From: a virus
Taxonomy: Duplodnaviria; Heunggongvirae; Uroviricota; Caudoviricetes
IMG/VR virus record: IMGVR_UViG_2740892439_000020
Coordinates: 1-15,118 of that record
Length of the DNA: 15,118 bases
Direction: 5' to 3' (one strand)
Shown here: one piece after another, positions 193 through 15,118 of the stretch
Layout: each line of letters opens with the position of its first letter
How positions within the stretch are numbered: the first letter of the stretch is position 1
Translations under genes and position numbers: made by a program
Notes under the pieces: model-generated
Database searches by the model: none
What the model saw: the letters and a program-made list of their open reading frames with translations, nothing else
Told to the model about the DNA's origin: nothing

Positions 193-206
193 CTTAATTC
201 TCCAGG

Positions 207-616: not shown

Positions 617-627
617 TTCTTGTCTCC

Positions 628-651
628 AATAAAAAACCGCCATCAGGCGGC
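628..651 (-). terminator. hairpin + T-tract element (minus-strand RNA GCCGCC-UGAU-GGCGG then UUUUUUAUU)
   Basis: perfect 5-bp GC stem CCGCC/GGCGG (637-650), 4-nt loop, U-run; lies at the junction of two small genes. Confidence 0.4.
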
Positions 652-810: not shown

Positions 811-823
811 TTATCATCTCCAT

Positions 824-846
824 AAAACAAAACCCGCCGTAGCGAG
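824..846 (-). terminator. putative rho-independent terminator
   Basis: minus-strand stem CUCGC/GCGGG (one G-U) followed by UUUUGUUUUAU, immediately upstream of the RBS of the 643..810 gene. Confidence 0.35.
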
Positions 847-850
847 TTCA

Positions 851-878
851 GATAAAAGAAATCCCCGCGAGTGCGAGG
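851..878 (-). terminator. putative rho-independent terminator downstream of the 899..1180 gene
   Basis: minus-strand 6-bp GC-rich stem (CCUCGC/GCGGGG, one G-U) with 4-nt loop followed by AUUUCUUUUAUC. Confidence 0.4.
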
Positions 879-898
879 ATAGTTACTTGTTCATATTA

Positions 899-1180
899 TT
901 AATCGTCAATGTATTTTGAGCATTGTGGGCAATCATCAATCCCACAATACGATTCATATGCATCCTTTATTGCGTCGCGGGCTTCAGTAAGAGTATTGAA
1001 TAAGTTGCAGCTATTATCTTTTTGATATAGGTAAGTTCCTAATTTATAAGCAGAAGAAGCATCATTTCCGCTGTCTAAAATTACATCGTTATGGATTCTG
1101 CACCTTGCAAGAACTCCTGATCCCATAAGGGTCTGCATAGCCCATTGCTCTTGATCTTCACACAAATCATGAATGCTCAT
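899..1180 (-). CDS. small Cys-containing protein (93 aa), possibly Ea8.5-like putative zinc-binding protein
   Basis: ORF 899..1198 in track; start moved to ATG 1178-1180 (MSIHDLCED...) which has GAGAGGTG upstream; C-terminal CGIDDCPQC motif; coding region is visibly AT-rich versus flanks; position corresponds to the ea8.5 slot of lambda. Confidence 0.45.
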   Translation of the reverse strand: MSIHDLCEDQEQWAMQTLMGSGVLARCRIHNDVILDSGNDASSAYKLGTYLYQKDNSCNLFNTLTEARDAIKDAYESYCGIDDCPQCSKYIDD

Positions 1181-1294
1181 TTCAACACCTCTCTTCACGT
1201 TTCACACACGTTAAGATTAACAGTGTTTTTACATGCTTTGGAAGATTTATTTTATAAAAACTCTTTTAATACAAATAGATATAATAGTTCACTA

Positions 1295-2065
1295 TTATAG
1301 CTCCTTTAATCGAGGCGGTTCTGGTAGAGGCATCCAGTGGGTTACCTCTTTGAGATACAGGTCTTCGCCATCACCGTCATCCCAAGTTGGATTGCCATCA
1401 TTAAACCAGTCGCCATATACGCCGACCTGAGTGTTGGGGATGTTTGGTGGGTAGTTGTTTTTAAAGTCAGCTGCTAACACATAGCATTGTCGCTCTCCCA
1501 TTTCTGGCATTCGCTCACTACAGCTTATCCAACCATCCGGAGTTACCGGAGAATTGCCAGACAGCTCGTTCAACTTGTAAGTTTGGCTTACAGGTTCGGC
1601 TTCCAGTTCTGCAATGCGCTTCTCTGCGGCTTCCAGCTTCTCGCGCATATCATCAACGTACTCGACCAGAGATCCGCCAGCAGGAATTTCGCACTCCTCG
1701 ACCAGTTGGAAGTAGATATCAGCTGCGGACCGTGTGTTGCTATGCCTAGCGTCGCCCATCTCACCTTCACGAAGAGCATCGCGTTCTGCGGTAAGATTGG
1801 CTATTTTGCTGTCTTTGCCTTCCAGCTCAACACGCAGTTTCCCTACCGTTAGCGCAATATCCTCGTTCTCCTGATCGCGGAGTTTGATGTATTGCTGGTT
1901 TCTTTCCCGTTCATCCAACAATGCCAGCGCGATATCTGGCGAAAAGTGCTTCATAAAATCGTTAAGCGCATTAATTCGCTGATCGAAAGGCATTACAGGT
2001 GCTTCACCAGCAATTTTTGTTTTTTCAGCGATTTCACGAAGCTTTTGATAATCAATCTTGCTCAC
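1295..2065 (-). CDS. Ead/Ea22-like protein with predicted coiled-coil middle and C-terminal DUF551-like domain
   Basis: 256-aa ORF, GTG start at 2063-2065; central heptad-like charged region (LEAAEKRIAELEAE); C-terminal W...RMPE...VTHWMPLPEPP signature typical of DUF551. Confidence 0.55.
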   Translation of the reverse strand: MSKIDYQKLREIAEKTKIAGEAPVMPFDQRINALNDFMKHFSPDIALALLDERERNQQYIKLRDQENEDIALTVGKLRVELEGKDSKIANLTAERDALREGEMGDARHSNTRSAADIYFQLVEECEIPAGGSLVEYVDDMREKLEAAEKRIAELEAEPVSQTYKLNELSGNSPVTPDGWISCSERMPEMGERQCYVLAADFKNNYPPNIPNTQVGVYGDWFNDGNPTWDDGDGEDLYLKEVTHWMPLPEPPRLKEL

Positions 2066-2306
2066 TGGTTGCCCCCTGCTTTTCTGCCTTCAACACCATG
2101 TGCGAACCATCATCCAGCTCCCACGCGATCTCACCACCTTCAGCCATGACCAGTCGCCACACCAATTGAGCAGCCTCATTGGTAACATCACGACCTGGAT
2201 CATTGCCAACGCGCATACGCCCACCTTCAACATCGCGCATTTTTGCCAGCATGATAGTTTTTGATAGCGGTGAAAAACCAAGCTGTAGTCGTGCTGAATT
2301 ACTCAC
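2052..2306 (-). CDS. hypothetical small protein (84 aa)
   Basis: ORF 2052..2333 in track; start moved to GTG 2304-2306, which has a strong AAAGGAGG 6 nt upstream; overlaps the next gene start by 14 nt. Confidence 0.45.
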
Positions 2307-2469
2307 TGGTTGCCTCCTTTGCGCACATCGCATTCAGATATTTGTTTTTATTCACTGATGGAAAAGAATTTCTCTTAAGCAATTCCTCTCTCGATGGCAT
2401 TGGCTTTACGCGTTGGCGAATAATCATTTCTGCCGGAAGAATGCCGGGATTGTATGCAAGTCCTCTCAT
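2299..2469 (-). CDS. hypothetical small protein (56 aa)
   Basis: part of track ORF 2299..2502; ATG 2467-2469 (MRGLAYNP...) has GAGGAA 7 nt upstream; alternative start at 2484-2486 overlaps the upstream gene. Confidence 0.35.
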
Positions 2470-2479
2470 GGTAAATTCC

Positions 2480-2776
2480 TCAGTCATTACTGATAGCGCC
2501 ATAGCGTGAGCGGTAATTACGCAGGCGCGGGTCGATATATTCAGGGAAGTGGGTATATGTGGCTTTGCGGAATGGTCGGATTGATGTTTCGTTTATTCGG
2601 TCTTTTTCCTGTTTTTCTGCGAGTTGTATATCGCGTCGGTACTTCCGTTCTTCTTTTGTTTCTGGTGGCAGAGCAAGAAACGCGTCGAGATTATTCTTGA
2701 TATTTTCCAGCACCTCCGATATGGAATTGCCGGAACAGCGGCGCGGGTCGTCCGCACCATATAGAGGCGCTGGCAT
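2480..2776 (-). CDS. hypothetical phage protein (98 aa)
   Basis: ATG 2774-2776 with AGGAGA 6 nt upstream; starts 15 nt downstream of the exonuclease stop. Confidence 0.5.
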
Positions 2777-2792
2777 GGTTTTCTCCTGTTGA

Positions 2793-3341
2793 TTATTTAG
2801 CTAACTTTTTCCAGATCGCTGAAACGTATTTGGCTTGGTGAATGGCATCATCAAGCGCGTTGTGGCGAGTTCCTTTGAATGGCATATCTCGCTTAGGGTC
2901 GAATCCTATTACCTTCCCAAGTTCGACGATTGTTCTTACGTCGCGGTCATTCCACCACTGCCACGGAACTGGCTGCCCTGTCAGCGAATAACTGTTTCGG
3001 AGAATAACGCAGTCAAATGATGCTCCATTCCCCCAAACCTGAACGAATTTGTGGTTAGCGTTCTTTATGATGAATTCAGATAACCATGAAAGAGCCGTTG
3101 AAAGCTCCTGAGTGTTGCTGGTTAGCGATTTTCTGGCTTCTTCACTCTGTTCCAGCCACCATAAAATCGTTGAAGCGTCAGGACGCGCCCGATATCGCAT
3201 TGATGACTCAAGCGAGATATTTACCGAGAACTCTTCTCCTGTTTCTCCGGTATTCGGGTCAAAGAATACCGCCCCAATAGAAATAACTGGCGCATATGGC
3301 CCGTTGCCCATTGTTTCAAGGTCAACCATTAAGTGATTCAT
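2793..3341 (-). CDS. DEDDh-family (DnaQ-like) 3'-5' exonuclease
   Basis: 182 aa; Exo I motif MVDLET, Exo II WGNGASFDCVIL, Exo III HNALDDAIHQAKY; AAGGA RBS. Confidence 0.75.
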   Translation of the reverse strand: MNHLMVDLETMGNGPYAPVISIGAVFFDPNTGETGEEFSVNISLESSMRYRARPDASTILWWLEQSEEARKSLTSNTQELSTALSWLSEFIIKNANHKFVQVWGNGASFDCVILRNSYSLTGQPVPWQWWNDRDVRTIVELGKVIGFDPKRDMPFKGTRHNALDDAIHQAKYVSAIWKKLAK

Positions 3342-3349
3342 GTAAGTCC

Positions 3350-3856
3350 TTAAATTGCGTGAATAGCGTGACGAGGGAAGGGGAGAGTTACTGGTGCAAA
3401 GGGTATATCGTCGTCAAAATCCATCGGTGGTTCGTTGTGTTGTGCTGGTGATGATTGCTGCTGTGGCTTCTGTGATTGCCTGCTGGCTGCTTGTTGTTTG
3501 CTGTCGCCAATTCCGCCAAGCATTTGCATCACGCCATTAATTCCGACATGAACCTCGGTTGTGTAACGGTCTTGCCCTGACTGGTCTTTCCACTTTCTGG
3601 TTCTCAGCATTCCCTCGAAATAAATCTGATCACCTTTTTTCACATACTGCCCCACGACCTCAGCCAGTTTCCCGGATACAGCAACACGATGCCATTCAGT
3701 CAATTCCTTTTGCTCGCCAGTATTTTTATCTCGCCATTGTTCTGACGTGGCTATTGTCAGGTTAGCGAACGCTGTACCTGATGGTGAGTATCGAACTTCC
3801 GGGTCTTGTCCTACCCGACCAAGGATAATCACCTTATTTACGCCTCTGCTTGCCAT
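3350..3856 (-). CDS. ssb: single-stranded DNA-binding protein (SSB)
   Basis: 168 aa; N-terminal OB-fold region nearly colinear with E. coli SSB ([33 protein letters not shown]), Gly/Gln-rich linker, acidic C-terminal tail DFDDDIPF. Confidence 0.9.
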
Positions 3857-4564
3857 TTATGCCGCCTGTTTTAGTTCGTTAACTCTGATGTTCATTACCT
3901 GAACGCATTTAGCCTGCGCCTCCTCATTGCCAGCCATTAATTGCCAGTCACGCTGATAACGCTCGATGAGTTTTTTCTTGTCAGTTTCTGTTGACGCATA
4001 ATCGCTGAAGTCTTTCAGGATTTGTTCGCAGTCAACCGATGGAGATTTCTGGTTGGTATTTTCTGGTGATGGTTTGTTATCTGATGCTGGTATTGCCCAT
4101 CCCGGCAGCGATGGAGGGAGCCAGTAAAATCCTGTTCCATCCTTCAGTTTTGCCCTGTGCCACCCCTGCTTTTTATCGAGAGATGTTTGTGCGAAACCTT
4201 CCTCAAGGTTATACAGATACCGACCGATTCCCCACTGAACGGCAGCGCGCTTCATTGCACCGGAACGACCACCTTTGACGGCTTCTACCTGCGTGTTTTC
4301 AGCAGCATCCCATTTGGTTACCCATTCGGAATCAATCTTTATTGATATGCCGCATTCAACGCCTCCGTTGTTGGGAATATCGCGGTATTCATTGCGCCAT
4401 CCTGCTTTTCCGCAAACATCGTCCAGGCGTTTCATGATTGCCCGGTTCGTGACATAAGCCAGCACCATAGCCCACACTTTGCCATCGCGTGTTTTACCGC
4501 TTTGCTGTATTCGCCATTCGATATCTTCAGGGCCGAATGGCTCATCGAATTTATTCAAATCCAT
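3857..4564 (-). CDS. single-strand annealing protein (Rad52/Erf-like recombinase)
   Basis: 235 aa; directly abuts ssb (TAA then ATG); N-terminal annealase-like region with RAAVQWGIGRYLYNL motif; GAGGTGA RBS; sub-family assignment uncertain. Confidence 0.65.
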   Translation of the reverse strand: MDLNKFDEPFGPEDIEWRIQQSGKTRDGKVWAMVLAYVTNRAIMKRLDDVCGKAGWRNEYRDIPNNGGVECGISIKIDSEWVTKWDAAENTQVEAVKGGRSGAMKRAAVQWGIGRYLYNLEEGFAQTSLDKKQGWHRAKLKDGTGFYWLPPSLPGWAIPASDNKPSPENTNQKSPSVDCEQILKDFSDYASTETDKKKLIERYQRDWQLMAGNEEAQAKCVQVMNIRVNELKQAA

Positions 4565-4651
4565 AATTCACCTCAGAATGGACATGGCCCAAGGAAATAA
4601 CGCTGATTTAATACTTCAGTCTTTGCCGCATTTAAAAATACGCGAACACCT

Positions 4652-4822
4652 TCACGATCTCCCTTCTGGCGATACATTAACGCCTGCTGCGTGTACATGC
4701 GTCTCTGTAACTTGCTCTCCTTCACTGTGGTTGCGAGTGACATGAATATCTCCTTCGTTACCGATTAATTCTTTCATCTGACGAATGAATTCTTCGTCTG
4801 ACCAGTTATCTGTAAAACTCAT
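4652..4822 (-). CDS. hypothetical small acidic protein in the kil position (56 aa)
   Basis: ATG 4820-4822 overlaps the cIII-like stop as ATGA; part of track ORF 4652..4852. Confidence 0.4.
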   Translation of the reverse strand: MSFTDNWSDEEFIRQMKELIGNEGDIHVTRNHSEGEQVTETHVHAAGVNVSPEGRS

Positions 4823-4989
4823 GGACGGCCTTGTTGTTTCAAAATATCCCAAAGCTTTTCGAGCAAACTTTTCATTCTTGGTTGTTTAAAGTCTGCTCCG
4901 GTTAAAATGTTTTTTCGTGAATGCTGTACCGATAAAATCGGGTTGAAAGGGCGAACCGATGCCGCCCCTGCAATAGCGAACTGTTGCAT
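4819..4989 (-). CDS. cIII: CIII-like protein (FtsH/HflB inhibitor family), 56 aa
   Basis: ATG 4987-4989 with AAGGAG 7 nt upstream; N-terminal MQQFAIAG and C-terminal SLLEKLWDILKQQGRP resemble lambda CIII (MQYAIAG...ESLLER...RLIDILNQPGVP); the track ORF extends further 5' without an RBS. Confidence 0.55.
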   Translation of the reverse strand: MQQFAIAGAASVRPFNPILSVQHSRKNILTGADFKQPRMKSLLEKLWDILKQQGRP

Positions 4990-5051
4990 AGGATGCTCCT
5001 TCTGTTTGATTACATAACGAAAACGCCTCGAGTGAAGCGTTATTGGTATGC

Positions 5052-5079
5052 ATATAAAAAATCCCTCACACTGGAGGGC
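5052..5079 (-). terminator. putative rho-independent terminator (tL-type) upstream of cIII
   Basis: minus-strand stem CCCUC/GAGGG with 6-nt loop followed by AUUUUUUAUAU. Confidence 0.45.
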
Positions 5080-5141
5080 AAAGAAGATTTCCAATAATCA
5101 GAACAAGTCGGCTCCTGTTTAGTTACGAGCGACATTGCTCC

Positions 5142-5169
5142 GTGTATTCACTCGTTGGAATGAATACAC
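5142..5169. repeat. perfect 9-bp inverted repeat GTGTATTCA-N10-TGAATACAC
   Basis: read directly from sequence; intergenic between the membrane protein gene and cIII; no U-tract on the minus (transcribed) strand. Confidence 0.6.
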
Positions 5170-5196
5170 AGTGCAGTGTTTATTCTGTTGTTTATG

Positions 5197-5224
5197 CCAA
5201 AAATAAAGGACGATTATGCGGCCT
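5197..5224 (-). terminator. weak hairpin + UUUAUUUUUG element just after the membrane protein gene stop
   Basis: imperfect stem on minus strand followed by the same T-tail decamer seen at 207-216 and 5719-5728. Confidence 0.25.
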
Positions 5225-5228
5225 GAAA

Positions 5229-5678
5229 TTACTTAACCAATGATGCTGCATATTCGATAAGATAAAGTTTTGGGGCCAGCCAAATTTTTAACCAAGTCAT
5301 ATTGGTTACTACACCAATAATAAAAATCCCCCACAGAGTCAAAACTCCAACCAATGGCATGATAAGAAGGTTAATATCTCCTTTGCTATCCCAAACCATT
5401 GTCGGCCTGTATTTGGGATTTCCCCTCTCCCATGAGTATCCTTCATCACCGATTTTACCTGTCTCAACTCTTTGGCACTGCTTCTTCATAAACCAGAAAA
5501 CCAGTGGGATTGTTAGAATGGCTATTAATGTTTTAATCAGACTGTCAACCATATTCCATAGCAGCAACTGATGAACAACATCAGGAATCTGTGCTTGGCT
5601 AAATGAAACAGCAGCATCTATTCCATTGCTGGCTTTTTGCAGTAGTTCTACGAGAATCTTGTTTGCTTGTTCTTCCAT
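5229..5678 (-). CDS. predicted inner-membrane protein with two transmembrane helices (149 aa); possible superinfection-exclusion-type protein
   Basis: hydrophobic segments LIKTLIAILTIPLVFWFM and LLIMPLVGVLTLWGIFIIGVV; ATG 5676-5678 with AAGGTGA upstream; sits between N and cIII; function is inference only. Confidence 0.5.
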   Translation of the reverse strand: MEEQANKILVELLQKASNGIDAAVSFSQAQIPDVVHQLLLWNMVDSLIKTLIAILTIPLVFWFMKKQCQRVETGKIGDEGYSWERGNPKYRPTMVWDSKGDINLLIMPLVGVLTLWGIFIIGVVTNMTWLKIWLAPKLYLIEYAASLVK

Positions 5679-5718
5679 ATATCACCTTGATTGTAATAAG
5701 CATGAAATTATTTACGGA

Positions 5719-5746
5719 CAAAAATAAAGGCCACCATCAGGCAGCC
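5719..5746 (-). terminator. hairpin + T-tract element (tL1-type) between N region and membrane protein gene
   Basis: minus-strand 7-bp stem GGCUGCC/GGUGGCC (two G-U), loop UGAU, then CUUUAUUUUUG. Confidence 0.4.
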
Positions 5747-5817
5747 TTGTAGTTCTGTTTACCAAGTTCTCTGGCAATCATTGTCGTCGTTCGTATTGTC
5801 CACACCATTGATTTTTA

Positions 5818-5904
5818 TCAATAGTCGTAGTCATACGGATAGTCCTGGTATTGTTCCATCACATCCTGAGGATGCTCTTCGAACTCATCAAATTCTTCTT
5901 CCAT
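5818..5904 (-). CDS. 28-aa highly acidic mini-protein (MEEEFDEFEEHPQDVMEQYQDYPYDYDY)
   Basis: not in ORF track; ATG 5902-5904 with GAGGTGA 3-5 nt upstream, immediately after the N stop codon. Confidence 0.3.
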   Translation of the reverse strand: MEEEFDEFEEHPQDVMEQYQDYPYDYDY

Positions 5905-5912
5905 ATCTCACC

Positions 5913-6212
5913 TCAAATAAGTGGTTTACTGCCTAATTTCATTTTCTGGCGACCAACACAAGTCACACCCATTTCACTGCGTGGCTTGCGGTAGTAAATA
6001 CGATTCTGTTTACGCTCGATTTCTTCTGCCTTCTTGCAGCGAAGGCTTCCGAGTGATGCTGCTTTGTCTGCTCTGACGCAACCAGAGAGCTTTAGCGCAA
6101 TTTTTCGCGCCAGTGCTTCATTACTGCGTCGCTCGGCAATAAGTTCTGCTCTGCGAGCTTTGTAGCGGCTTTTTGCCGTACCTTTGGATTCTTTCCAGAC
6201 AATGGTTACCAT
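5913..6212 (-). CDS. N: antitermination protein N (phi21-type arginine-rich motif)
   Basis: ATG 6210-6212 with AAAGGAG 6 nt upstream (track ORF starts at 6242 without an RBS); N-terminal ARM GTAKSRYKARRAELIAERR as I recall for phage 21 N; first gene downstream of pL/nutL. Confidence 0.7.
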   Translation of the reverse strand: MVTIVWKESKGTAKSRYKARRAELIAERRSNEALARKIALKLSGCVRADKAASLGSLRCKKAEEIERKQNRIYYRKPRSEMGVTCVGRQKMKLGSKPLI

Positions 6213-6322
6213 GATGGTCTCCTTTAAGTGGCTTTGGCGCATGACGCGTCGAGGTGCTTATCTTCTCGATCGCTGTCTTGCAGCTGCAATTCGCGCCATC
6301 CCCAAAACCACTCAAGTTCTGG

Positions 6323-6363
6323 TCTCAACGGTTAGGTTGAGAGTCCGTCGATGTTAAAGAGCC
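6323..6363 (-). promoter_or_regulatory. nutL: nutL site: boxA (GCTCTTTAACA) and boxB hairpin (UCUCAAC-CUAACC-GUUGAGA)
   Basis: boxA consensus-like 11-mer at 6352-6362 on minus strand, then a perfect 7-bp stem hairpin at 6323-6342, between pL and N. Confidence 0.65.
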
Positions 6364-6404
6364 TGCCAATCTGTTCCGTTTGGCTTCCAGCGTCCTGCTG
6401 ATGG

Positions 6405-6464
6405 CTTAAATTTAAGACTTCTTAATTTATTGGTCAAGTGCATTTTTGAAGAAAACTTAATTTT
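6405..6464 (-). promoter_or_regulatory. pL promoter with OL operators
   Basis: minus-strand -35 TTGACC (6432-6437), 17-nt spacer, -10 TAAATT (6409-6414); P22-type operator-like 18-mers with TTAAG/CTTAA half-sites at 6410-6427 and 6445-6462; 12-bp perfect palindrome CTTAAATTTAAG at 6405-6416. Confidence 0.5.
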
Positions 6465-6500
6465 ATGGGCGTGAATTTAGTTTGTCTTTGATTTTTAACG

Positions 6501-6528
6501 GGAAATAAAAAAGGGGCGAAAGCCCTTA
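6501..6528 (-). terminator. putative terminator immediately after the repressor gene
   Basis: minus-strand GGGC-UUUC-GCCC hairpin followed by CUUUUUUAUUU, starting at the repressor stop codon. Confidence 0.4.
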
Positions 6529-7176
6529 AGGAAGGTTTGCTAGCTTGGCATCAACGACAACGCCAATGATTTTACAGTTCCCATTGATTTCAATCATTGG
6601 GTATTGTGGATTGAGTGGTTTCAGGAATTTTCTACCGGCATCAATAACTAACTTTTTGAATGTCGCCTCGTTTTCTCCTTCAAGTTTGGCGACTACCAGC
6701 TTTCCATTACGTGGTTCGACTTCTGGGTCGACGAGAATAATCATCCCCTCAGGAATACTCAGTCCTGCCGGGGCAGTCATTGAATCGCCTTTAACGTCGA
6801 GCCAAAAAGAGTCTTCAGAACAATCTACCGTTGTGTCGTACCAGTTATCTATTGCACGCCTATGATATGGCTCTACAGCTTCCATCCAACATCCTGCGCT
6901 TACCCAACTAATTAGAGGATATGAACCTCTTGGATCATGCCTGCTGTGATAGGCAATGTTTGAAAGACTATCCTCTCCTTTCAACAGGTAATCAGGGGAG
7001 CACTGCAAAGCCTTGGCTAAGGCCAATAGGTTTTCGCCATTGGGCTCAGTTTCAGATCGCTCCCATTGGGAAATAGCAACATTAGACACGCCAACCATCT
7101 TGCCAAGGGCAGCCTGCCTAATCTTGAGTTCTTTTCTGCGAGCGCGAATACGCTCACCCATCAGTTGTGTATTCAT
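6526..7176 (-). CDS. c2: prophage repressor, C2/CI type (N-terminal HTH, C-terminal LexA-like S24 self-cleaving domain), P22 C2-like
   Basis: 216 aa; N-terminal domain (MNTQLMGERIRARR..QAALGKMVGVSNVAISQWERSE) matches my recollection of the P22 C2 DNA-binding domain; C-terminal Ser-Lys peptidase region (GDSMTAPAG...KLVVAKL...TFKKL); divergent from cro across an operator region. Confidence 0.85.
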   Translation of the reverse strand: MNTQLMGERIRARRKELKIRQAALGKMVGVSNVAISQWERSETEPNGENLLALAKALQCSPDYLLKGEDSLSNIAYHSRHDPRGSYPLISWVSAGCWMEAVEPYHRRAIDNWYDTTVDCSEDSFWLDVKGDSMTAPAGLSIPEGMIILVDPEVEPRNGKLVVAKLEGENEATFKKLVIDAGRKFLKPLNPQYPMIEINGNCKIIGVVVDAKLANLP

Positions 7177-7245
7177 AGTTAAGACATCTTAAATAAACTT
7201 GACTTAAGATTCCTTTGGTGGATAATTTAAGTGTTCTTTAATTTC
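7177..7245. promoter_or_regulatory. OR operator region with pR (and divergent pRM)
   Basis: three 18-bp P22-type operator-like sites of form ANTNAAG-N4-CTTNANT at 7177-7194, 7202-7219, 7225-7242; pR -35 TTGACT 7199-7204 and -10 GATAAT 7221-7226 on plus strand. Confidence 0.6.
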
Positions 7246-7256
7246 GGAGCGAGTCT

Positions 7257-7442
7257 ATGTACAAAAAAGATGTTATTGACCACTTCGGAACCCAGCGTGC
7301 TGTTGCTAAAGCACTAGGCATTAGCGATGCAGCAGTCTCTCAGTGGAAAGAAGTTATCCCAGAGAAAGACGCCTATCGATTGGAAATCGTTACAGCTGGC
7401 GCCCTGAAGTATCAAGAAAGTGCTTACCGCCAAGCGGCATAA
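7257..7442 (+). CDS. cro: Cro repressor (P22 Cro-like)
   Basis: 61 aa; GGAG RBS; HTH QRAVAKALGISDAAVSQW; sequence matches my recollection of P22 Cro; divergent from repressor. Confidence 0.85.
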   Translation: MYKKDVIDHFGTQRAVAKALGISDAAVSQWKEVIPEKDAYRLEIVTAGALKYQESAYRQAA

Positions 7443-7449
7443 GCAAATT

Positions 7450-7489
7450 GCTCTTTAACAGTTCTGGCCTTTCACCTCTAACCGGGTGA
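7450..7489 (+). promoter_or_regulatory. nutR: nutR site: boxA (GCTCTTTAACA) and boxB hairpin with CUAACCG loop
   Basis: boxA 7450-7460 identical to the nutL boxA; boxB stem UCACC/GGUGA at 7472-7489 shares the CUAACCG loop sequence with nutL boxB. Confidence 0.6.
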
Positions 7490-7498
7490 GCAAACATC

Positions 7499-7525
7499 AG
7501 CGGCAAATCCATTGGGTGTGCCGCT
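7499..7525 (+). other. 7-bp inverted repeat AGCGGCA-N13-TGCCGCT (candidate tR1-region structure, no U-tract)
   Basis: read from sequence between nutR and the cII-like gene; lambda tR1 is rho-dependent, which is consistent with absence of a T-run. Confidence 0.3.
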
Positions 7526-7557
7526 ATAACTCAATATCAATATAGGAAAATTAACAA

Positions 7558-7854
7558 ATGGCACAAGCAAGCTACAGCAAGCCAACACAGCGAGAAATTG
7601 ATCGCGCTGAAACTGATTTACTCATCAACCTGTCAACGCTTACCCAGCGCGGTCTGGCAAAGATGATTGGCTGTCATGAATCGAAGATAAGCAGAACGGA
7701 CTGGAGGTTTATTGCTTCGGTCTTGTGTGCTTTCGGAATGGCATCAGACATCAGTCCGATTAGCAGGGCTTTTAAGTATGCGCTTGATGAAATCACAAAG
7801 AAAAAATCCCCGGCCGCCACCGAGGATTTTAAGCAAATTGATATGCAATTCTGA
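7558..7854 (+). CDS. cII: CII-family transcriptional activator
   Basis: 98 aa; HTH region and C-terminal KKKSPAATEDFKQIDMQF resemble lambda CII (NKKRPAATERSEQIQMEF); follows cro and nutR. Confidence 0.75.
   Translation: MAQASYSKPTQREIDRAETDLLINLSTLTQRGLAKMIGCHESKISRTDWRFIASVLCAFGMASDISPISRAFKYALDEITKKKSPAATEDFKQIDMQF
7567..7580 (-). promoter_or_regulatory. candidate CII-binding site of pRE (TTGC-N6-TTGC direct repeat)
   Basis: minus strand reads TTGCTGTAGCTTGC inside the 5' end of the cII-like gene, the position and form of the lambda pRE activator site. Confidence 0.45.
7797..7826 (-). terminator. oop-type antisense terminator within the 3' end of the cII-like gene
   Basis: minus-strand hairpin (7807-7826) followed by AUUUUUUCUUUG; same location as the lambda oop RNA terminator. 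Confidence 0.45.
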
Positions 7855-7886
7855 GGGAATTACTGGATCAATCCACAGGAGTAATT

Positions 7887-8048
7887 ATGACAAAACGTCG
7901 TAAGAAATACCAGGAAAAAGAAGAGATTCGACACCCTGATTCACCTGAGGGATTAGTGGTAGCCGCAGCAAATAACAGGGCGTTCGCAGAGCGCCTTGTT
8001 GGTGTTTACAGACTAGCCAAAGCAGGAGTGAAACATGGGCGTCGTTAA
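7887..8048 (+). CDS. small basic protein (53 aa, [53 protein letters not shown])
   Basis: not in ORF track; ATG 7887-7889 with AGGAG 6 nt upstream; ends 14 nt inside the O-like gene. Confidence 0.45.
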   Translation: MTKRRKKYQEKEEIRHPDSPEGLVVAAANNRAFAERLVGVYRLAKAGVKHGRR

Positions 8049-8796
8049 GTTAGCTGATTACAGGCCTCAACTGGAGGTCGTGGAGCATCGCGTGGCAGAT
8101 ACCGAAGATGGTTTCATGCGCGTTGCTAACGAGATTACCGACAGTCTGCTGATGGCTGATTTAACCGTCCGGCAGTTGAAGGTGATGCTCGCTATCATGC
8201 GCAAGACATACGGATTCAATAAGCCGATGGATCGACTCACAAACACGCAGATAGCAGCCATGACAGGTATTCATCACACTCATGTTTGCGCTGCCAAGCG
8301 CCAGCTTATCGAGCGTAAATTCCTCATTGCTGATGGCGTGAAAATCGGAGTGAACAAGGTGGTTTCTCAGTGGATTAGCCAGGACAGCTTAACATTAGCT
8401 AAAACAGCTAATAAAACATTAGCCGAGTCGGCTAATGGGTATAAGCCAAGTCAGCTAAACACAAAAGACAATATACAAAAGACAATAAATACAAATACCC
8501 CCTTACCCCCTAACGGGGGCGGCGATTGGCAGGTTAAACCTGAACGTCGCAAGGCAGAACGAATCGACTACGAATCCTTCCTGAACGCCTACAACGCCGA
8601 AGTCGGTGACAGACTTCCACACGCTGTTGCGGTCAACGAGAAACGCAAACGCCGCCTGAAGAAAATCATCCCGCAACTGAAAACGCCAAACGTGGACGGT
8701 TTCAGAGCGTATGTCAGGGCGTTTGTGCATCAGCCAAGCCGTTTTACTTCGGAGACAACGACACTGGCTGGACGGCAGATTTTGATTACCTGCTGA
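8035..8796 (+). CDS. O: replication initiation protein, lambda O-like N-terminal domain (possibly 3'-frameshifted, see findings)
   Basis: 253 aa as read; AGGAG RBS; N-terminal region [37 protein letters not shown] resembles lambda O (DLTKRQFKVLLAILRKTYGWNKPMDRITDSQ); iterons inside the gene. Confidence 0.8.
8394..8500. repeat. candidate replication origin: ATTAGC/GCTAAT iteron-like palindromes followed by an AT-rich tract
   Basis: palindromes ATTAGCT-AAAAC-AGCTAAT (8394-8412) and ATTAGCCGA-G-TCGGCTAAT (8418-8436), a degenerate third copy near 8441-8458, then AT-rich 8459-8500; inside the O-like coding region as for ori-lambda. Confidence 0.5.
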
Positions 8797-8851
8797 GGGA
8801 AGATTCGTTAACGGGAGTACGGGAAGGGAAGTTTGCAGACAGGGGGATAGC

Positions 8852-10228
8852 ATGAGACAGGATATCGAAGCGAGCGTTATCGGTGGCCTGCTGATTGGTG
8901 GATTAACACCAACTGCCAGTGACGTTCTGGCAACGCTTGAGCCGGAAGCGTTTTCAATTCCGCTCTACCGGAAAGCCTTCGAGGTTATCCGCAAGCAGGC
9001 GAGAAACAGAAACCTAATCGACGCGCTGATGGTTGCCGAGGCGTGCGGAGAGGAGCATTTCACGTCAATCCTGATGACCAGCAAAAACTGCCCGAGCGCC
9101 GCAAACCTGAAGGGATATGCCGGAATGGTCGCGGATAACTATCACCGCCGTCTGGTGCTGGAAATCATGGATGAAATGCGTGAACCAATTCAGAGCGGAA
9201 CCATCGATACATCGAGTCAGGCGATGGACGAGCTTGTAAAGCGTCTTTCAGCCATCAGAAAGCCCCGTGACGAGGTTAAACCTGTACGGTTAGGGGAAAT
9301 CATCACTGACTACACTGACACGCTTGACAGGCGTCTGAGGAACGGAGAAGAGTCAGATACCCTGAAGACCGGAATCGAAGAACTTGATGTCATCACCGGA
9401 GGGATGAACGCGGAAGACCTGGTGATAATCGCTGCCCGTCCTGGCATGGGGAAAACCGAACTGGCGCTGAAGATTGCCGAAGGCGTTGCAAGCCGCGTTA
9501 TTCCTGGTTCTGACGTCCGGCGCGGAGTATTGATTTTCTCAATGGAAATGAGCGCATTGCAGATTGCAGAGCGAAGCATTGCCAACGCCGGGAGGATGTC
9601 GGTTAGCGTACTGCGAAATCCTGCATCGATGGATGACGAAGGCTGGGCGCGTGTTGCTAACGGCATGAGTCAGCTTGCAGATTTGGATGTATGGGTAGTC
9701 GATGCCTCGCGGTTATCGGTCGAAGAAATACGCTCAATCGCAGAACGACACAAACAGGAAAATCCAAACCTGTCACTCATCATGGCGGATTATCTTGGCC
9801 TGATTGAGAAGCCGAAAGCAGACCGCAACGACCTCGCAATTGCTCACATCTCCGGAAGCCTGAAGGCGATGGCGAAAGACCTGAAAACGCCTGTTATCTC
9901 CCTAAGTCAGCTTTCGCGCGATGTTGAGAAGCGACCAAACAAACGCCCGACAAACGCAGATTTGCGTGATTCAGGAAGCATTGAGCAGGACGCAGACTCA
10001 ATCATCATGCTCTATCGGGAAGCGGTATATGACGAGAACAGTAGCGCCGCGCCATTTGCTGAAATCATCGTGACGAAAAACCGTTTTGGCTCGCTTGGTA
10101 CGGTTTACCAGCGGTTCTGTAACGGACATTTTGTTGCATGTGACCAGGATGAAGCCAGACAGATTTGCACAGCATCAAATGCACCCGCTGCACGTGGCAG
10201 ACGATATGCACAAGGGGCTGACGTATGA
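8852..10228 (+). CDS. DnaB-family replicative DNA helicase (P22 gene 12-like, replaces lambda P)
   Basis: 458 aa; DnaB N-terminal domain; Walker [13 protein letters not shown]; Walker B and RecA-fold motifs ([18 protein letters not shown]); follows the O-like gene. Confidence 0.9.
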
Positions 10229-10253
10229 CCATCTACATCACTGAGCTAATAAC

Positions 10254-10286
10254 AGGCCTGCTGGTAATCGCAGGCCTTTTTATTTG
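10254..10286 (+). terminator. rho-independent terminator (tR2-like) after the helicase gene
   Basis: perfect 8-bp stem AGGCCTGC/GCAGGCCT with 8-nt loop followed by TTTTTATTT. Confidence 0.65.
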
Positions 10287-10300
10287 GGGGAGGGTAAATC

Positions 10301-10507
10301 GTGGCTGAGTTAATTTTCTCTGCATTGAGGATTCTTGGTGCTATGTGGATGGTGGCGACGTTCATTGTGGTTGCCAGCAGTTTTGTCCGGTTGGTAGGCG
10401 AAGGTAAAGACCTGGTGGGTGTGCTTTTCGGTAGCATTTTCCTGTGGGTGATTATCGGTGTTGCGCCTGTCGCTGTAGCAAAAATGGCGTGGCGTTTTGT
10501 GAGTTGA
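10301..10507 (+). CDS. small membrane protein with two predicted TM helices (68 aa)
   Basis: GTG start 10301-10303 with GGGGGAGGG 6 nt upstream; hydrophobic segments MWMVATFIVVASSFV and VLFGSIFLWVIIGVAPVAVA. Confidence 0.45.
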   Translation: MAELIFSALRILGAMWMVATFIVVASSFVRLVGEGKDLVGVLFGSIFLWVIIGVAPVAVAKMAWRFVS

Positions 10508-10524
10508 ACTGATGGTAAGTACCG

Positions 10525-10845
10525 ATGGACGAATCAAGAAAGCAGTTTGAAGAAAGCTGGTTGCGACGTGGGGGCGAATCTTCAGACCTTATCCGTTACC
10601 CTGAAAATCACCATGAAATTGGCAGCGGTAATATTGGTGGTCAATACGTGATGGTCGATGTTCAAGGCCACTGGCAAACGTGGCAGGCATCGCGATCAGC
10701 TATTGAAATAACCGCGCCAAAGTTTATCGACAGCAGAGAAGCATTAGCCAAAGGGTTTACTGTTGATTATTCCAATGGCTTCGGTGATGCAATGGATGCT
10801 TATGAGGAAAACATCCGCGCTGCTGGAGTCAAATTGAAGGAGTAA
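10525..10845 (+). CDS. hypothetical phage protein (106 aa)
   Basis: ORF with coding-like composition between helicase and ninB; weak RBS. Confidence 0.5.
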   Translation: MDESRKQFEESWLRRGGESSDLIRYPENHHEIGSGNIGGQYVMVDVQGHWQTWQASRSAIEITAPKFIDSREALAKGFTVDYSNGFGDAMDAYEENIRAAGVKLKE

Positions 10846-10847
10846 CG

Positions 10848-11258
10848 ATGAAGCAAACAATCTTCCTCCGAAGTAAGCAACAACAGCAAGCCGCAATAAA
10901 TGCCATCCTCGCAACACCACTCGATAAAGACAAGCCAGTCACCATCCGCATTACTGACTACAAGCGCAATCTTGACCAGAACGCAAAATTTCACGCGATG
11001 CTGGCGGATATCGCTCGTCAGGTTCAATGGTGCGGCAAATGGTTAAAACCGGAACAGTGGAAGGTTTTGTTGATTAGCGGTCATGCAGTGGCAACAAAAC
11101 AGGAAGCTGATGTTTTGCGCGGCCTTGAAGGCGAATTCGTCAACATTCGCGAAAGCAGCGCGCAGATGAGCGTGAAGCGTATGGCAAGTCTGATCGAGTA
11201 CACAACAGCCTGGGCTATTGGTCAGGGTGTCAGATTTACCGACAGGAGGTACGAATGA
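10848..11258 (+). CDS. ninB: NinB (Orf-family recombination mediator)
   Basis: 136 aa; AAGGAG RBS; similarity to lambda NinB/Orf ([25 protein letters not shown] vs lambda LDQNRKLWACLGDVSRQVEWHGRWL). Confidence 0.8.
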
Positions 11259-11431
11259 GACGACAGCGACGAAGTATCACCGACATAATCTGCGAAAACT
11301 GCAAATACCTTCCAACGAAACGCTCCAGAAATAAACGCAAGCCAATCCCAAAAGAATCTGACGTAAAAACCTTCAATTACACAGCTCACCTGTGGGATAT
11401 CCGGTGGCTAAGATATCGTGCGAGGAAATGA
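11255..11431 (+). CDS. ninE: NinE
   Basis: 58-aa ORF not in track; ATGA overlap with ninB stop; AGGAGG RBS; [30 protein letters not shown] matches my recollection of lambda NinE. Confidence 0.75.
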
Positions 11432-11787
11432 CAATGGATTATTCACAGTTAAGTGATTTTGAAATTAACAGAATGGTAGGAGACATAATTTTTAAAGGCC
11501 TTTGGGCAAGTAAACCGGAAACATCAGGGAATAACACCAACAAATGGTATTACGGAAATGCTGATACAACTTTTGAGCCATTAAACCCTTTACCTGACTA
11601 CTGCAATGATCCTAGCGCCTCATGGCCGATTATTGAGAAATACAGGATTAGCATTATCAATCTCGATGAAGACGAGTGGGGTGCACGTGGTGTGGCCGAC
11701 TGTAAATCTAAGCGAGCTATACATGAAAATTCCCTCCGCGCCGCCATGATTGTCTTTCTCATGATGCAGGACGCCAATAATGCTTAG
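11428..11787 (+). CDS. NinX-like hypothetical protein (about 118 aa)
   Basis: ATG 11428 overlaps the ninE stop as ATGA (alternative ATG 11434 with GAGGAAA RBS); track ORF starts further upstream at GTG 11392 inside ninE; position between ninE and ninF as for P22 ninX. Confidence 0.55.
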
Positions 11788-11956
11788 CCCATCCCAATCC
11801 CTCCAATACCAGAAAGAAAGCGTCGAGCGGGCTTTAACGTGCGCTAACTGCGGTCAGAAGCTGCATGTGCTGGAAGTTCACGTGTGTGAGCACTGCTGCG
11901 CAGAACTGATGAGCGATCCGAATAGCTCAATGTACGAGGAAGAAGACGATGGCTAA
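11780..11956 (+). CDS. ninF: NinF
   Basis: 58-aa ORF not in track; [40 protein letters not shown] (Cys-rich) matches my recollection of lambda NinF; overlaps both neighbours. Confidence 0.75.
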
Positions 11957-12560
11957 ACCAGCGCGAAGACGATGTAAAAACGATGAATGTCGGGAATGGT
12001 TTCACCCTGCATTCGCTAATCAGTGGTGGTGCTCTCCAGAGTGTGGAACCAAGATAGCACTCGAACGACGAAGTAAAGAACACGAAAAAGCGGAAAAAGC
12101 AGCAGAGAAGAAACGACGACGAGAGGAGCAGAAACAGAAAGATAAACTTAAGATTCGAAAACTCGCCTTAAAGCCCCGCAGTTACTGGATTAAACAAGCC
12201 CAACAAGCCGTAAACGCCTTCATCAGAGAAAGAGACCGCGACTTACCATGTATCTCGTGCGGAACGCTCACGTCTGCTCAGTGGGATGCCGGACATTACC
12301 GGACAACTGCTGCGGCACCTCAACTCCGATTTGATGAACGCAATATTCACAAGCAATGCGTGGTGTGCAACCAGCACAAAAGCGGGAATCTCGTTCCGTA
12401 TCGCGTCGAACTGATTAGCCGCATCGGGCAGGAAGCAGTAGACGAAATCGAATCAAACCATAACCGCCATCGCTGGACTGTCGAAGAGTGCAGGGCCATC
12501 AAGGCGGAGTATCAGCAGAAACTCAAAGACCTGCGAAATAGCAGAAGTGAGGCCGCATGA
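11949..12560 (+). CDS. ninG: NinG (Rap-family recombination-associated endonuclease)
   Basis: 203 aa; Cys-rich N-terminus and lysine-rich region as in lambda NinG; gene order. Confidence 0.85.
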
Positions 12561-12763
12561 CGTTCTCAGTAAAAACCATTCCAGACATGCTCGTTGAAGC
12601 ATACGGAAACCAGACAGAAGTAGCACGCAGACTGAAATGTAGTCGCGGCACGGTAAGAAAATACGTTGATGATAAAGACGGGAAAATGCACGCCATCGTC
12701 AACGACGTTCTCATGGTTCATCGCGGATGGAGTGAAAGAGATGCGCTATTACGAAAAAATTGA
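12557..12763 (+). CDS. ninH: NinH
   Basis: 68 aa; ATGA overlap with ninG stop; matches lambda NinH in length and HTH-like sequence. Confidence 0.8.
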
Positions 12764-13406
12764 TGGCAGCAAATACCGAAATATTTGGGTAGTTGGCGAC
12801 CTGCACGGATGCTACACGAACCTGATGAACAAACTGGATACGATTGGATTCGACAACAAAAAAGACCTGCTTATCTCGGTGGGCGATTTGGTTGATCGCG
12901 GTACAGAGAACGTCGAATGTCTGGAATTAATCACATTCCCCTGGTTCAGAGCTGTACGTGGAAACCATGAGCAAATGATGATTGATGGCTTATCAGAGCG
13001 TGGAAACGTTAATCACTGGCTGCTTAATGGCGGTGGCTGGTTCTTTAATATCGATTACGACAAAGAAATTCTGGCTAAAGCTCTTGCCCATAAAGCAGAA
13101 GAACTTCCGTTAATCATCGAACTGGTGAGCAAAGGTAAAAAATATGTCATTTGCCACGCCGATTATCCTTGTGATGAATACGAGTTTGGAAAGCCAGTTG
13201 ATCATCAGCAGGTAATCTGGAACCGCGAACGAATCGGCAACTCACAAGACGGGATCGTGAAAGAAATCAAAGGCGCGGACACGTTCATCTTTGGTCATAC
13301 GCCAGCAGTGAAACCACTCAAATTTGCCAACCAGATGTATATCGATACCGGCGCAGTGTTCTGCGGAAACCTCACATTGATTCAGGTACAGGGAGAAGGC
13401 GCATGA
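12741..13406 (+). CDS. ninI: NinI serine/threonine protein phosphatase (lambda PPase family)
   Basis: start moved to ATG 12741 (GGAGTGAAAGAG RBS) from track start 12666; metallophosphatase motifs GDLHG, GDLVDRG, GNHE, GHT. Confidence 0.9.
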
Positions 13407-14026
13407 GACTCGAAAGCGTAGCTAAATTTCATTCGCCAAAAAGCCCGATGATGAGCGACTCACCACGGGCTACGGCTTCTGACTCTCTTTCCGGTACTGA
13501 TGTGATGGCTGCTATGGGGATGGCGCAATCACAAGCCGGATTCGGAATGGCTGCATTCTGCGGTAAGCATGAACTCAGCCAGAACGACAAACAAAAGGCT
13601 ATCAACTATCTGATGCAATTTGCACACAAGGTATCGGGGAAATACCGTGGTGTGGCAAAGCTTGAAGGAAATACTAAGGCAAAGGTACTGCAAGTGCTCG
13701 CAACATTCGCTTATGCAGATTATTGCCGTAGTGCCGCGACGCCGGGGGCAAGATGCAGAGATTGCCACGGTACAGGCCGTGCGGTTGATATAGCCAAAAC
13801 GGAGCAGTGGGGGAGAGTTGTTGAGAAAGAGTGCGGAAGATGCAAAGGTGTCGGCTATTCAAGAATGCCAGCAAGCGCCGCATATCGCGCTGTAACGATG
13901 CTAATCCCAAACCTTACTCAACCCACCTGGTCACGCACTGTTAAGCCGCTGTATGACGCTCTGGTGGTGCAATGCCACAAAGAAGAGTCAATCGCAGACA
14001 ACATTTTGAATGCGGTCACACGCTAG
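13403..14026 (+). CDS. Q: late-gene antiterminator Q (lambda Q type)
   Basis: 207 aa; ATGA overlap with ninI stop; zinc-binding CRDCHGTG...CGRCKG motifs; sequence matches my recollection of lambda Q; followed by a lambda-type pR'. Confidence 0.9.
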
Positions 14027-14068
14027 CAGCATGATTTCCACGGATGGCAACATATTAACGGCATGATA

Positions 14069-14110
14069 TTGACTTTTTGAATAAAGTTGGGTAAATTTGA
14101 CTCAACGATG
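14069..14110 (+). promoter_or_regulatory. late promoter pR' with overlapping qut (Q-utilisation) site
   Basis: -35 TTGACT 14069-14074, 17-nt spacer, -10 TAAATT 14092-14097; region nearly identical to lambda pR' as recalled. Confidence 0.75.
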
Positions 14111-14132
14111 GATAAATGCACTCGTTAAATAA

Positions 14133-14167
14133 AGCCTGAGTTAATAGCTCGGGGCTTTTTGCGTTTT
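14133..14167 (+). terminator. rho-independent terminator about 30-60 nt downstream of the pR' start (tR'-like, would give a short 6S-like RNA)
   Basis: 8-bp stem with one bulge (AGCCUGAG/CUCGGGGCU), 7-nt loop, then UUUUUGCGUUUU. Confidence 0.5.
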
Positions 14168-14303
14168 AATCACGACCTTTCTGAAAGCACATCAAACCAA
14201 ATACCAGACAGACAAAAATAATCACCTTATCCGCTGTGGCTACGGTGCGGTGTGCTTTGCATAAAAGAAAACCAGCGCAATGGCTGGCTTCGTGAAAGCG
14301 GGT

Positions 14304-14342
14304 GGCAAGAGGTTGCGCTAACAACCTCCTGCCGTTTTGCCC
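14304..14342 (+). other. strong stem-loop (12-bp stem, one mismatch) followed by GTTTTG in the late leader upstream of S
   Basis: GGCAAGAGGTTG-CGCTAA-CAACCTCCTGCC read from sequence; possible attenuator/terminator or RNA processing structure. Confidence 0.5.
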
Positions 14343-14385
14343 TTATTCCTAATTAAATAGAGCAAATCCCTTATTGGGCTAAGAC

Positions 14386-14709
14386 ATGAAGATGCCAGAA
14401 AAACATGACCTGTTAGCCGCCATTCTCGCGGCAAAGGAACAAGGCATCGGGGCAATCCTTGCGTTTGCAATGGCGTACCTTCGCGGCAGATATAATGGCG
14501 GTGCGTTTACAAAAACAGTAATCGACGCAACGATGTGCGCCATTATCGCCTGGTTCATTCGTGACCTTCTCGACTTCGCCGGACTAAGTAGCAATCTCGC
14601 TTATATAACGAGCGTGTTCATCGGCTACATCGGTACTGACTCGATTGGTTCGCTTATCAAACGCTTCGCTGCTAAAAAAGCCGGAATAGAAGATGGTGGA
14701 AATCAATAA
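14386..14709 (+). CDS. S: holin S (lambda S107/S105 dual-start class I holin)
   Basis: 107 aa; Met1-Lys2-Met3 dual-start motif; three TM segments; small CCC-TTATT-GGG hairpin (14368-14378) just upstream as for the lambda sdi structure. Confidence 0.9.
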
Positions 14710-15118
14710 TCAACGTAAGGCGTTCCTCGATATGCTGGCGTGGTCAGAGGGAACTGATAACGGACGGCAGAAAACCAGAAATCATGGTTATGACGTCATT
14801 GTTGGCGGAGAGCTATTCACTGATTACTCCGATCACCCTCGCAAACTTGTCACGCTAAACCCCAAACTCAAATCAACAGCCGCCGGACGCTACCAGCTTC
14901 TTTCCCGTTGGTGGGATGCCTACCGTAAGCAGCTTGGCCTGAAAGACTTCTCTCCGAAAAGCCAGGACGCTGTGGCACTGCAACAGATTAAAGAGCGTGG
15001 CGCTTTACCGATGATTGACCACGGTGATATTCGTCAGGCTATCGACCGTTGCAGCAATATCTGGCTTCACTGCCGGGAGCTGGTTATGGTCAGTTCGAGC
15101 ATAAGGCTGACAGCCTGA
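14693..15118 (+). CDS. R: endolysin R (lytic transglycosylase), C-terminus altered by an apparent 1-bp deletion frameshift
   Basis: overlaps S by 17 nt as in lambda; residues 1-123 match lambda R ([35 protein letters not shown]...); final 18 codons are out of frame relative to lambda R and end at the last triplet of the window. Confidence 0.85.

Follow-up and report, generated by a model that had tools for sequence, protein, structure and literature searches.

ninA, terminator tR2 and a small predicted membrane protein at the start of the nin region of a lambdoid Escherichia coli phage

In phage lambda, the genes around the intrinsic terminator tR2 are ordered P-ren-ninA/tR2-ninB; ren ends where ninA starts, and the stop codon of ninA overlaps the start of ninB. 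An open reading frame (ORF) at the same position, with tR2 inside it, is named ninA in P22 (X78401), Nil2 (AJ413274), HK620 (AF335538) and SPN9CC, and tR2 is annotated as such in the P22, Nil2 and HK620 records. In both lambda and P22, ninA is counted as one of the nin genes that are not essential (PMC8022706, PMC3349717), and the chaining of nin genes through ATGA overlaps is credited to Kroger and Hobom (1982), as cited in PMC8022706. Here we describe the corresponding locus in a 15,118-nt stretch of viral DNA (Caudoviricetes; IMG/VR record IMGVR_UViG_2740892439_000020, positions 1 to 15,118), hereafter the window, which corresponds to the early right operon of an E. coli phage or prophage of mosaic lambdoid type; the best matches are mEp235, HK544 and HZ41. 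Our subject is the segment from 10225 to 10507, where two short hydrophobic ORFs, of 27 and 68 codons, surround a terminator immediately after a helicase gene. Its features are as follows.

10225-10308, plus strand: ninA, 27 codons, ATG at 10225 to TGA at 10306-10308, spanning tR2 (phrog_5907, E = 1.3e-18 over residues 1-26)
10212-10217, plus strand: Shine-Dalgarno-like AAGGGG for ninA, 7 nt before the ATG and within the helicase coding sequence (anti-Shine-Dalgarno duplex -8.1 kcal/mol)
10254-10286, plus strand: intrinsic terminator tR2, hairpin AGGCCTGC/TGGTAATC/GCAGGCCT at 10254-10277 and T-tract TTTTTATTT at 10278-10286 (terminator scan, identity with lambda)
10286-10294, plus strand: Shine-Dalgarno sequence GGGGGAGGG of the 68-codon gene, immediately 3' of the T-tract and 6-7 nt from the GTG (sequence reading)
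10301-10507, plus strand: 68-codon gene, GTG at 10301 to TGA at 10505-10507, for a predicted two-helix membrane hairpin (phrog_1165, E = 7.4e-37, residues 1-68 of the 68-position profile)

The ninA/tR2 unit of the window shares with those of lambda, P22 and HK620 its first 66 nt, the hairpin, the T-tract, the ATGA overlap with the preceding gene (10225-10228) and a stop codon that overlaps the next start. Positions 10225-10290, a run of 66 nt through the motif GGGGGAG, are those found in lambda between ren and ninB, the sole change being synonymous (ATC vs ATT), and codons 1-22 specify a protein identical to that of lambda ninA. The units differ at their borders. In the window, as in P22 and HK620, the preceding gene encodes a DnaB-type helicase, whereas lambda has ren there; the NinA tail reads RVNRG in the window and RGKS in lambda, because the downstream partner differs. 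In HK620 and SPN9CC ninA is also 27 codons long, and in SPN9CC it overlaps the 68-codon gene by 8 nt, as it does in the window (GTGGCTGA, 10301-10308). Thus, the family match, a start at the preceding stop, tR2 in frame and a stop/start junction with the next gene were all found.

A sequence-only reading of the window had given both ORFs these coordinates, together with the ATGA overlap, the 8-nt overlap, the GTG start and a G-rich ribosome-binding site, which is GGGGGAGGG; all were reproduced. It had also considered the 27-codon ORF a possible chance reading of the terminator, a suggestion that we do not retain: judged by sequence and layout, the ORF is ninA, a real gene already named and annotated in related phages, with a start and a stop that are coupled to those of its neighbours in many unrelated contexts. 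The architecture of ninA, tR2 and a phrog_1165 gene is likewise already known and annotated in related phages, and what this work adds is a quantitative case for ninA as a selected coupling frame. The locus thereby provides a calibration case, in which a tiny hydrophobic ORF around a terminator, with the appearance of an artefact, is a real and long-named gene. We regard it as quite probable that the locus is an ordinary lambdoid nin-region start, consisting of a ninA bridge that holds tR2 and, after it, an optional cassette gene for an inner-membrane helical hairpin; with the same degree of confidence, ninA would be translated and would form the first link in the nin-region chain of overlapping genes.

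The tR2 stem has eight pairs, six of them G-C, with a predicted energy of -15.1 kcal/mol. The terminator occupies ninA codons 10-21, and the frame is open through both the hairpin and the T-tract. The strong, tR2-like terminator proposed earlier for 10254-10286 is therefore tR2 in the strict sense, as its sequence is unchanged from that of lambda. A generic terminator scan of the region revealed no enrichment (4 sites vs 2.9 expected), and the fold of the 86-nt segment was unremarkable (z = -0.89); that tR2 is more than chance follows from the identity of 10225-10290 with lambda ninA/tR2 at all but one synonymous base. By analogy with lambda, the tR2 of the window would terminate transcription from pR when N is absent.

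To place ninA in a wider sample we gathered tR2 hairpins from viral contigs and reference phages, 141 in all. In 134 of the 141 copies an ATG lies 30 nt 5' of the hairpin core. Conservation climbs from about 0.55 to 0.99 exactly at the ninA ATG and drops after GGGGGAG, delimiting an island of about 70 nt; about 420 phage records contain it, as do 2052 of the 5426 complete E. coli genomes. Seven unrelated gene ends were found upstream of the island, each with a Shine-Dalgarno-like motif at the right distance (duplex energies -5.9 to -11.6 kcal/mol), and in all seven the stop codon overlaps or abuts the ninA ATG. An energy of -5.9 kcal/mol is met by about 10% of random windows, and one of -8 kcal/mol, close to that of the window, is reached by about 3% of random 17-mers drawn from the loci; all seven contexts together have a probability of about 1e-7. 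Downstream of ninA lie at least eight unrelated genes (ninB, the 68-codon gene, and genes of 108, 92, 71, 65, 90 and 60 codons), every one of them preceded by a common G-run after tR2. In every downstream family surveyed the next gene starts at the ninA stop or within 8 nt of it, the two codons overlapping or abutting through about seven distinct junction sequences, including ATGA, GTGA, GTGGCTGA, ATGGTTAA and TAAATG (chance about 1e-7).

These observations bear on the explanation that the 27-codon ORF is a chance open frame over the terminator, which is not translated, and that tR2 alone matters. The hairpin arms and the T-tract dictate most of its residues (GGC CTG ... GCA GGC CTT TTT ATT), the Prokaryotic Genome Annotation Pipeline (PGAP) makes no call for it, and nucleotide conservation is so high that the ratio of non-synonymous to synonymous substitution rates (dN/dS) has little power, all as expected of such a frame. 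A frame of this kind is nevertheless hard to reconcile with seven independent upstream contexts that supply a Shine-Dalgarno motif and an overlapping or abutting stop, with some seven independent junction types that set the next start at the ninA stop, or with an ORF that stays open through at least three different hairpins, each of seven codons. Moreover, the lambda ninA start is active in a reporter study, in which the initiation site was described as 'not weak' and its silencing restored the levels of an upstream reporter (PMC4824070). On the basis of the conserved ATG, the upstream stop and Shine-Dalgarno contexts and the downstream junctions, we reject the chance frame, which we consider exceedingly improbable.

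Some results weigh against ninA as a selected bridge followed by a cassette gene, and these need to be interpreted with care. ninA is naturally disrupted in HK022 by a homing-endonuclease gene, and the entire nin region is dispensable in lambda (PMC8022706, PMC3349717); thus, the bridge is not essential. In one variant, represented by a single contig (L269), 16 nt separate the ninA stop from the next start, which it does not overlap. Among the variants in ninA codons 2-10, seven are synonymous and six non-synonymous, against 7 and 20 sites of the respective kinds (binomial P = 0.03), a synonymous excess that is only a faint signal. Finally, nothing in the evidence gathered here indicates a specific function for the 68-residue protein.

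As a side observation on the island, one contig (L272, near 11558, reverse strand) has two extra T residues in the tR2 T-tract, a natural frameshift variant in which ninA is fused in frame with the gene of the 108-residue membrane protein.

Variants of the hairpin allow the constraint on RNA structure to be compared with that on the peptide. HK97 Gp56 (L145, 904-1002) and HK022_56 agree with ninA of the window in the ATG, in the N-terminus MTIYITELI(T/A)G, which is common to all ninA classes, in the position after the helicase gene and in a stop that overlaps the next gene. The HK97 ORF, which shares the first ten codons, differs in having a hairpin of its own, GGGGCTA.../...TAGCCCC followed by T6. 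The L269 contig (1202-1290) carries a compensated inner stem, hairpin AGGCCTATC/GATAGGCCT, in place of the tR2 stem. Both of these hairpins fill exactly the same seven ninA codons as that of tR2, with the frame open and no charged residues, and the segment reads LLVIAG, AIYTVA or LSATIG depending on the version. As the amino acids are wholly replaced and the pairing is retained, RNA structure is the primary constraint in the hairpin segment; that none of the versions contains a charged residue leaves some room for constraint on the peptide as well. Recurrent single-base variants of the stem are both synonymous and wobble-preserving, and they do not discriminate between the two levels because six of the eight possible wobble-preserving transitions are synonymous anyway. 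Only a handful of synonymously diverged or hairpin-variant ninA copies were recovered in our scans, too few to separate selection on RNA from selection on the peptide.

The same variants are relevant to the explanation that NinA is itself a functional single-pass membrane micro-protein, which would be compatible with the bridge reading. The product has a hydrophobic core of 20 residues and a grand average of hydropathy (GRAVY) of 1.14; all classes retain the N-terminus, five synonymous Leu codons are in use at codon 8, codon 9 varies only conservatively (I/V/M), and the seven hairpin codons lack charge and proline in all three versions. These features speak for it. On the other hand, the C-terminal tail varies freely with the junction (RGKS, RVNRG, RGKCG, RVIGGFKK, GGEK), and the middle of the protein is replaced outright whenever the hairpin changes, so that RNA structure is what is conserved there. 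The split of the ORF in HK022 and the dispensability of the nin region also speak against a function of the peptide, and the stem variants, being uninformative for the reason given above, add nothing in its favour. We therefore consider a functional NinA micro-protein unlikely.

The disruption in HK022 (L002, AF069308, 811-1530) is due to a gene for a 203-residue HNH_3 and AP2 endonuclease, inserted between ninA codon 10 and the tR2 hairpin; the same insertion is present in about 22 viral contigs, which we refer to as class 3. In these the 5' end of ninA runs on as a 34-codon ORF, the last 20 nt or so of which are shared with the start of the endonuclease gene. That gene ends with a stop codon 1 nt 5' of the tR2 hairpin, which in HK022 is found about 660 nt further on. 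We had considered the 34-codon variant as a possible peptide selected in the absence of the terminator, and rejected it, because it is the 5' end of ninA fused to the leader of the HNH/AP2 endonuclease; in this respect HK022_56 differs from ninA of the window. The conserved ninA/tR2 island looks like a homing site.

An island of this kind might also be kept mainly as a patch of homology for recombination between lambdoid modules, with coding secondary. Such a role, which is compatible with the bridge reading, would account for the abrupt rise in conservation at the ATG and its fall after GGGGGAG with unrelated genes on either side, for the spread of the island over hundreds of phage records and more than two thousand E. 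coli genomes, and for its apparent use as an insertion site by a homing endonuclease. A pure recombination patch would have no need, however, of a Shine-Dalgarno motif in each upstream partner and a stop/start overlap with each downstream partner. We treat recombination as the main reason for the conservation of the island as a tentative possibility, and a somewhat doubtful one.

A broader proposal combines several of these elements: the ninA/tR2 island would be dual-coded, an uncharged transmembrane-like peptide being kept across at least three hairpins, pR transcripts made without N would be non-stop messages, and the small membrane proteins encoded after tR2 would be interchangeable effectors of the lytic phase. 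Were this correct, NinA fragments would be natural substrates of transfer-messenger RNA, and the stability of the replication-gene message would depend on N status. We hold this proposal, taken as a whole, to be improbable.

The short ORF that runs into an intrinsic terminator also recalls the leader attenuators of trp and pyrBI, in which a short ORF likewise lies before or across an intrinsic terminator within one transcript. If ninA were such a leader peptide, translating ribosomes would melt or mask the hairpin and so set the level of read-through at tR2. Apart from the layout itself, a weak Rfam match to Trp_leader was obtained at 10213-10283 (18.4 bits vs a gathering score of 41, E = 0.43), and ribosomes that halt very near tR2 suppress termination there (PMC4824070). 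The match is far below threshold, with none at Rfam gathering thresholds, and probably mirrors only the generic arrangement, a short ORF with a terminator. As phages differ in the sequence 5' of the ATG, they can share no conserved antiterminator pairing. In lambda, with native upstream sequence, tR2 efficiency is about 0.8 when a stop codon lies 18 bp away and about 0.9 when it lies beyond 30 bp (PMC4824070); the helicase stop codon of the window sits 25 nt 5' of the hairpin. Translation of lambda ninA lowers tR2 efficiency by only about 10%, as judged by silencing of its start (PMC4824070), and the effect is small because only 30 nt separate the AUG from the hairpin. Unlike the trp and pyrBI attenuators, ninA/tR2 has neither an alternative antiterminator structure nor regulatory codons, and read-through would be set by N and nut rather than by the position of a ribosome. 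Attenuation by a ninA leader peptide is thus very unlikely.

The second ORF, that of 68 codons, is a real gene under purifying selection. Full-length matches are the phrog_1165 hypothetical proteins of several phages (HK022_58, SPN9CC_0027, Stx2-86 gp69, WP_000818841.1), which have the same position after tR2 and the same overlapping start. The protein matches 199 clusters, and nearly all of the 120 that were listed are 68 residues long; the allele of the window is 85-99% identical to the E. coli representatives of these 120. Of 5426 complete E. coli genomes, 539 carry the gene, and it is found in 107 phage records, 48 of them from Shiga toxin 2a (Stx2a)-converting phages. The 31 alleles collected are uniformly 68 codons long and give a dN/dS of 0.36-0.41; none of them has another sense frame open. 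Distant homologues (30-37% identity), whose genes follow the replication genes in other lambdoid-like phages, retain W16, F47, W49, G53, K61 and W64. Support for the GTG start comes from the Shine-Dalgarno sequence, from an in-frame stop codon that precedes the GTG by 3 nt and from Salmonella phages (SPN9CC), which have ATG at this position and keep the overlap with the ninA stop as ATGGTTAA.

Both ORFs had been described as hydrophobic and the longer one as having two transmembrane (TM) segments, and the predictions agree: the 27-residue product has the positive GRAVY given above, and the 68-residue product has Kyte-Doolittle peaks at about residues 4-29 and 36-60. AlphaFold2 models it with helices at 2-33 and 38-67, forming a helical hairpin (predicted local distance difference test score, pLDDT, 89.8). 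The product is thus predicted to be a helical hairpin, and it would presumably insert in the membrane.

Two candidate readings of this part of the locus were rejected. The label 'NinA' does not belong to the 68-codon gene, as the HK620 and SPN9CC records place it on the 27-codon ORF, with the 8-nt overlap. Antisense ORFs at 10246-10437 and 10310-10537 were dismissed because they are open in only about two-thirds of the alleles. The survey also exposed gaps in annotation. PGAP annotates the 68-codon gene and never ninA (for example, L266, E. coli E2863, 1201-1280); the 68-codon gene is left unannotated in HK620 (L267, 701-904); and in mEp235 (L001, 1625-1783) its annotated start is an internal ATG, giving a product of 52 residues.

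In every record that annotates it, the 68-codon gene is labelled 'hypothetical protein'. The protein has no Pfam, NCBIfam, PADLOC or PDB match, and a fold search of the Big Fantastic Virus Database (BFVD) with its model returned no meaningful structural neighbour. Neither ORF matches a defence protein in PADLOC or the Ren family phrog_142 at E <= 1. A holin is not indicated either, as no holin PHROG was matched at E <= 1 and the gene lies in the early operon; the holin gene of the window is at 14386-14709. The sequence-only reading had stated that lambda has ren in this slot, which is not the case: ren lies 5' of ninA/tR2, and lambda has nothing in the position, between tR2 and ninB, that the 68-codon gene fills here. 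Lambda Ren is likewise encoded by a small non-essential gene near tR2 in the pR operon, but it is soluble and has 96 residues.

Other occupants of the slot after tR2 were noted elsewhere (L014, L029, L255 and others). They include unrelated small membrane proteins, namely one of 108 residues with an N-terminal TM segment (MADWQIPIIILAG...), a 90-residue DUF4752 protein and a very hydrophobic one of 60 residues (MVNAFICSLF...), and also soluble proteins.

One explanation for the 68-residue protein is that it acts as an effector of superinfection exclusion, defence or host killing. Such a role would suit a small protein with two TM segments that is common in Stx and other prophages, at the genome frequency given above, and whose gene occupies a variable cassette slot, taken in other phages by the unrelated 108-, 90- and 60-residue membrane proteins. 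Against it stand the absence of any PADLOC, Pfam or NCBIfam match and of informative sequence or structural relatives, and the position of the gene. A sequence scan found no promoter-like site between the helicase gene and ninB, and the gene lies behind tR2 in the repressed pR operon; it should therefore be silent in the lysogen, where exclusion genes usually act. We find an exclusion, defence or killing effector distinctly unlikely. Our best guess is that the protein acts on a host inner-membrane function during lytic growth. The gene of this predicted membrane protein is carried by about one-tenth of complete E. coli genomes and by many Stx-converting phages.

The surroundings of the locus indicate how its genes might be expressed. 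In the window, the order is an N-like antiterminator gene (minus strand), a CI-like repressor gene, cro, cII, an O-like initiator gene and the DnaB-type helicase gene, followed by ninA, the 68-codon gene, a 106-codon ORF, ninB, ninG, a NinI-like phosphatase gene, Q and the holin gene. The features that matter here are the following.

5913-6242, minus strand: N-like antitermination protein gene (phrog_271, 'anti-termination protein N-like', E = 3e-37)
7449-7490, plus strand: nutR-like site in the cro/cII interval, with boxA-like TGCTCTTTAA (7449-7458; boxA pattern match) and then a short hairpin TTCACCTCTAACCGGGTGAG (7471-7490)
8852-10228, plus strand: DnaB-like replicative helicase gene (Pfam DnaB_C E = 2e-77, DnaB E = 5e-13; phrog_19), with its TGA at 10226-10228 sharing bases with the ninA ATG
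10525-10845, plus strand: 106-codon ORF after the 68-codon gene and next to it in the nin-region chain (phrog_343, E = 3e-28, no function assigned)
10848-11258, plus strand: ninB/orf recombination mediator gene (Pfam NinB, E = 4e-55)

The hairpin TTCACCTCTAACCGGGTGAG may resemble boxB of the phage 21/P22 type rather than that of lambda. As the window has both an N-like gene and a nutR-like site, expression of the genes after ninA is most likely gated by N at tR2 and coupled to translation of ninA. Termination, read-through, translational coupling and membrane insertion, like any function of the product, are inferred, and the course would be as follows. Polymerase that leaves pR without N would halt at tR2; its transcripts would end within ninA with no stop codon, and nothing downstream would be made. 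Polymerase modified by N, for which the N-like gene and the nutR-like site of the window would provide, would read through. Ribosomes ending the helicase gene would then restart at the ATGA, translate ninA through the hairpin and stop at the UGA at 10306-10308. This stop is 5 nt past the GTG and, with the Shine-Dalgarno sequence GGGGGAGGG, would allow the 68-codon gene to be translated by coupling or re-initiation. The outcome would be a non-essential two-TM protein made in the delayed-early phase and in the lytic cycle only, in agreement with the report that ninR genes are expressed from pR and in the lytic cycle alone (PMC7166090). The earlier proposal that the small membrane proteins are expressed conditionally, on read-through, would fit this course.

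The C-terminal half of the 106-codon ORF is homologous to the 92-codon gene found after ninA in other phages (38% identity, E = 1e-7), where that gene is joined straight to ninA via a GTGA overlap.

Among 19 genome-assembly hits from a scan for divergent copies, 14 are lambda DNA at 99.9-100% identity, 12 of them at exactly 100% (L124, L127, L129-L135, L137, L138 and L140-L142). The assemblies affected by this contamination are assigned to Pseudomonas, Oceanobacillus, Bradyrhizobium, Psychrobacter, Pseudoxanthomonas, Shewanella, Nocardioides, Chromatium and others, and many of the hits come from contigs that are about 48.4 kb long or have about 1x coverage.

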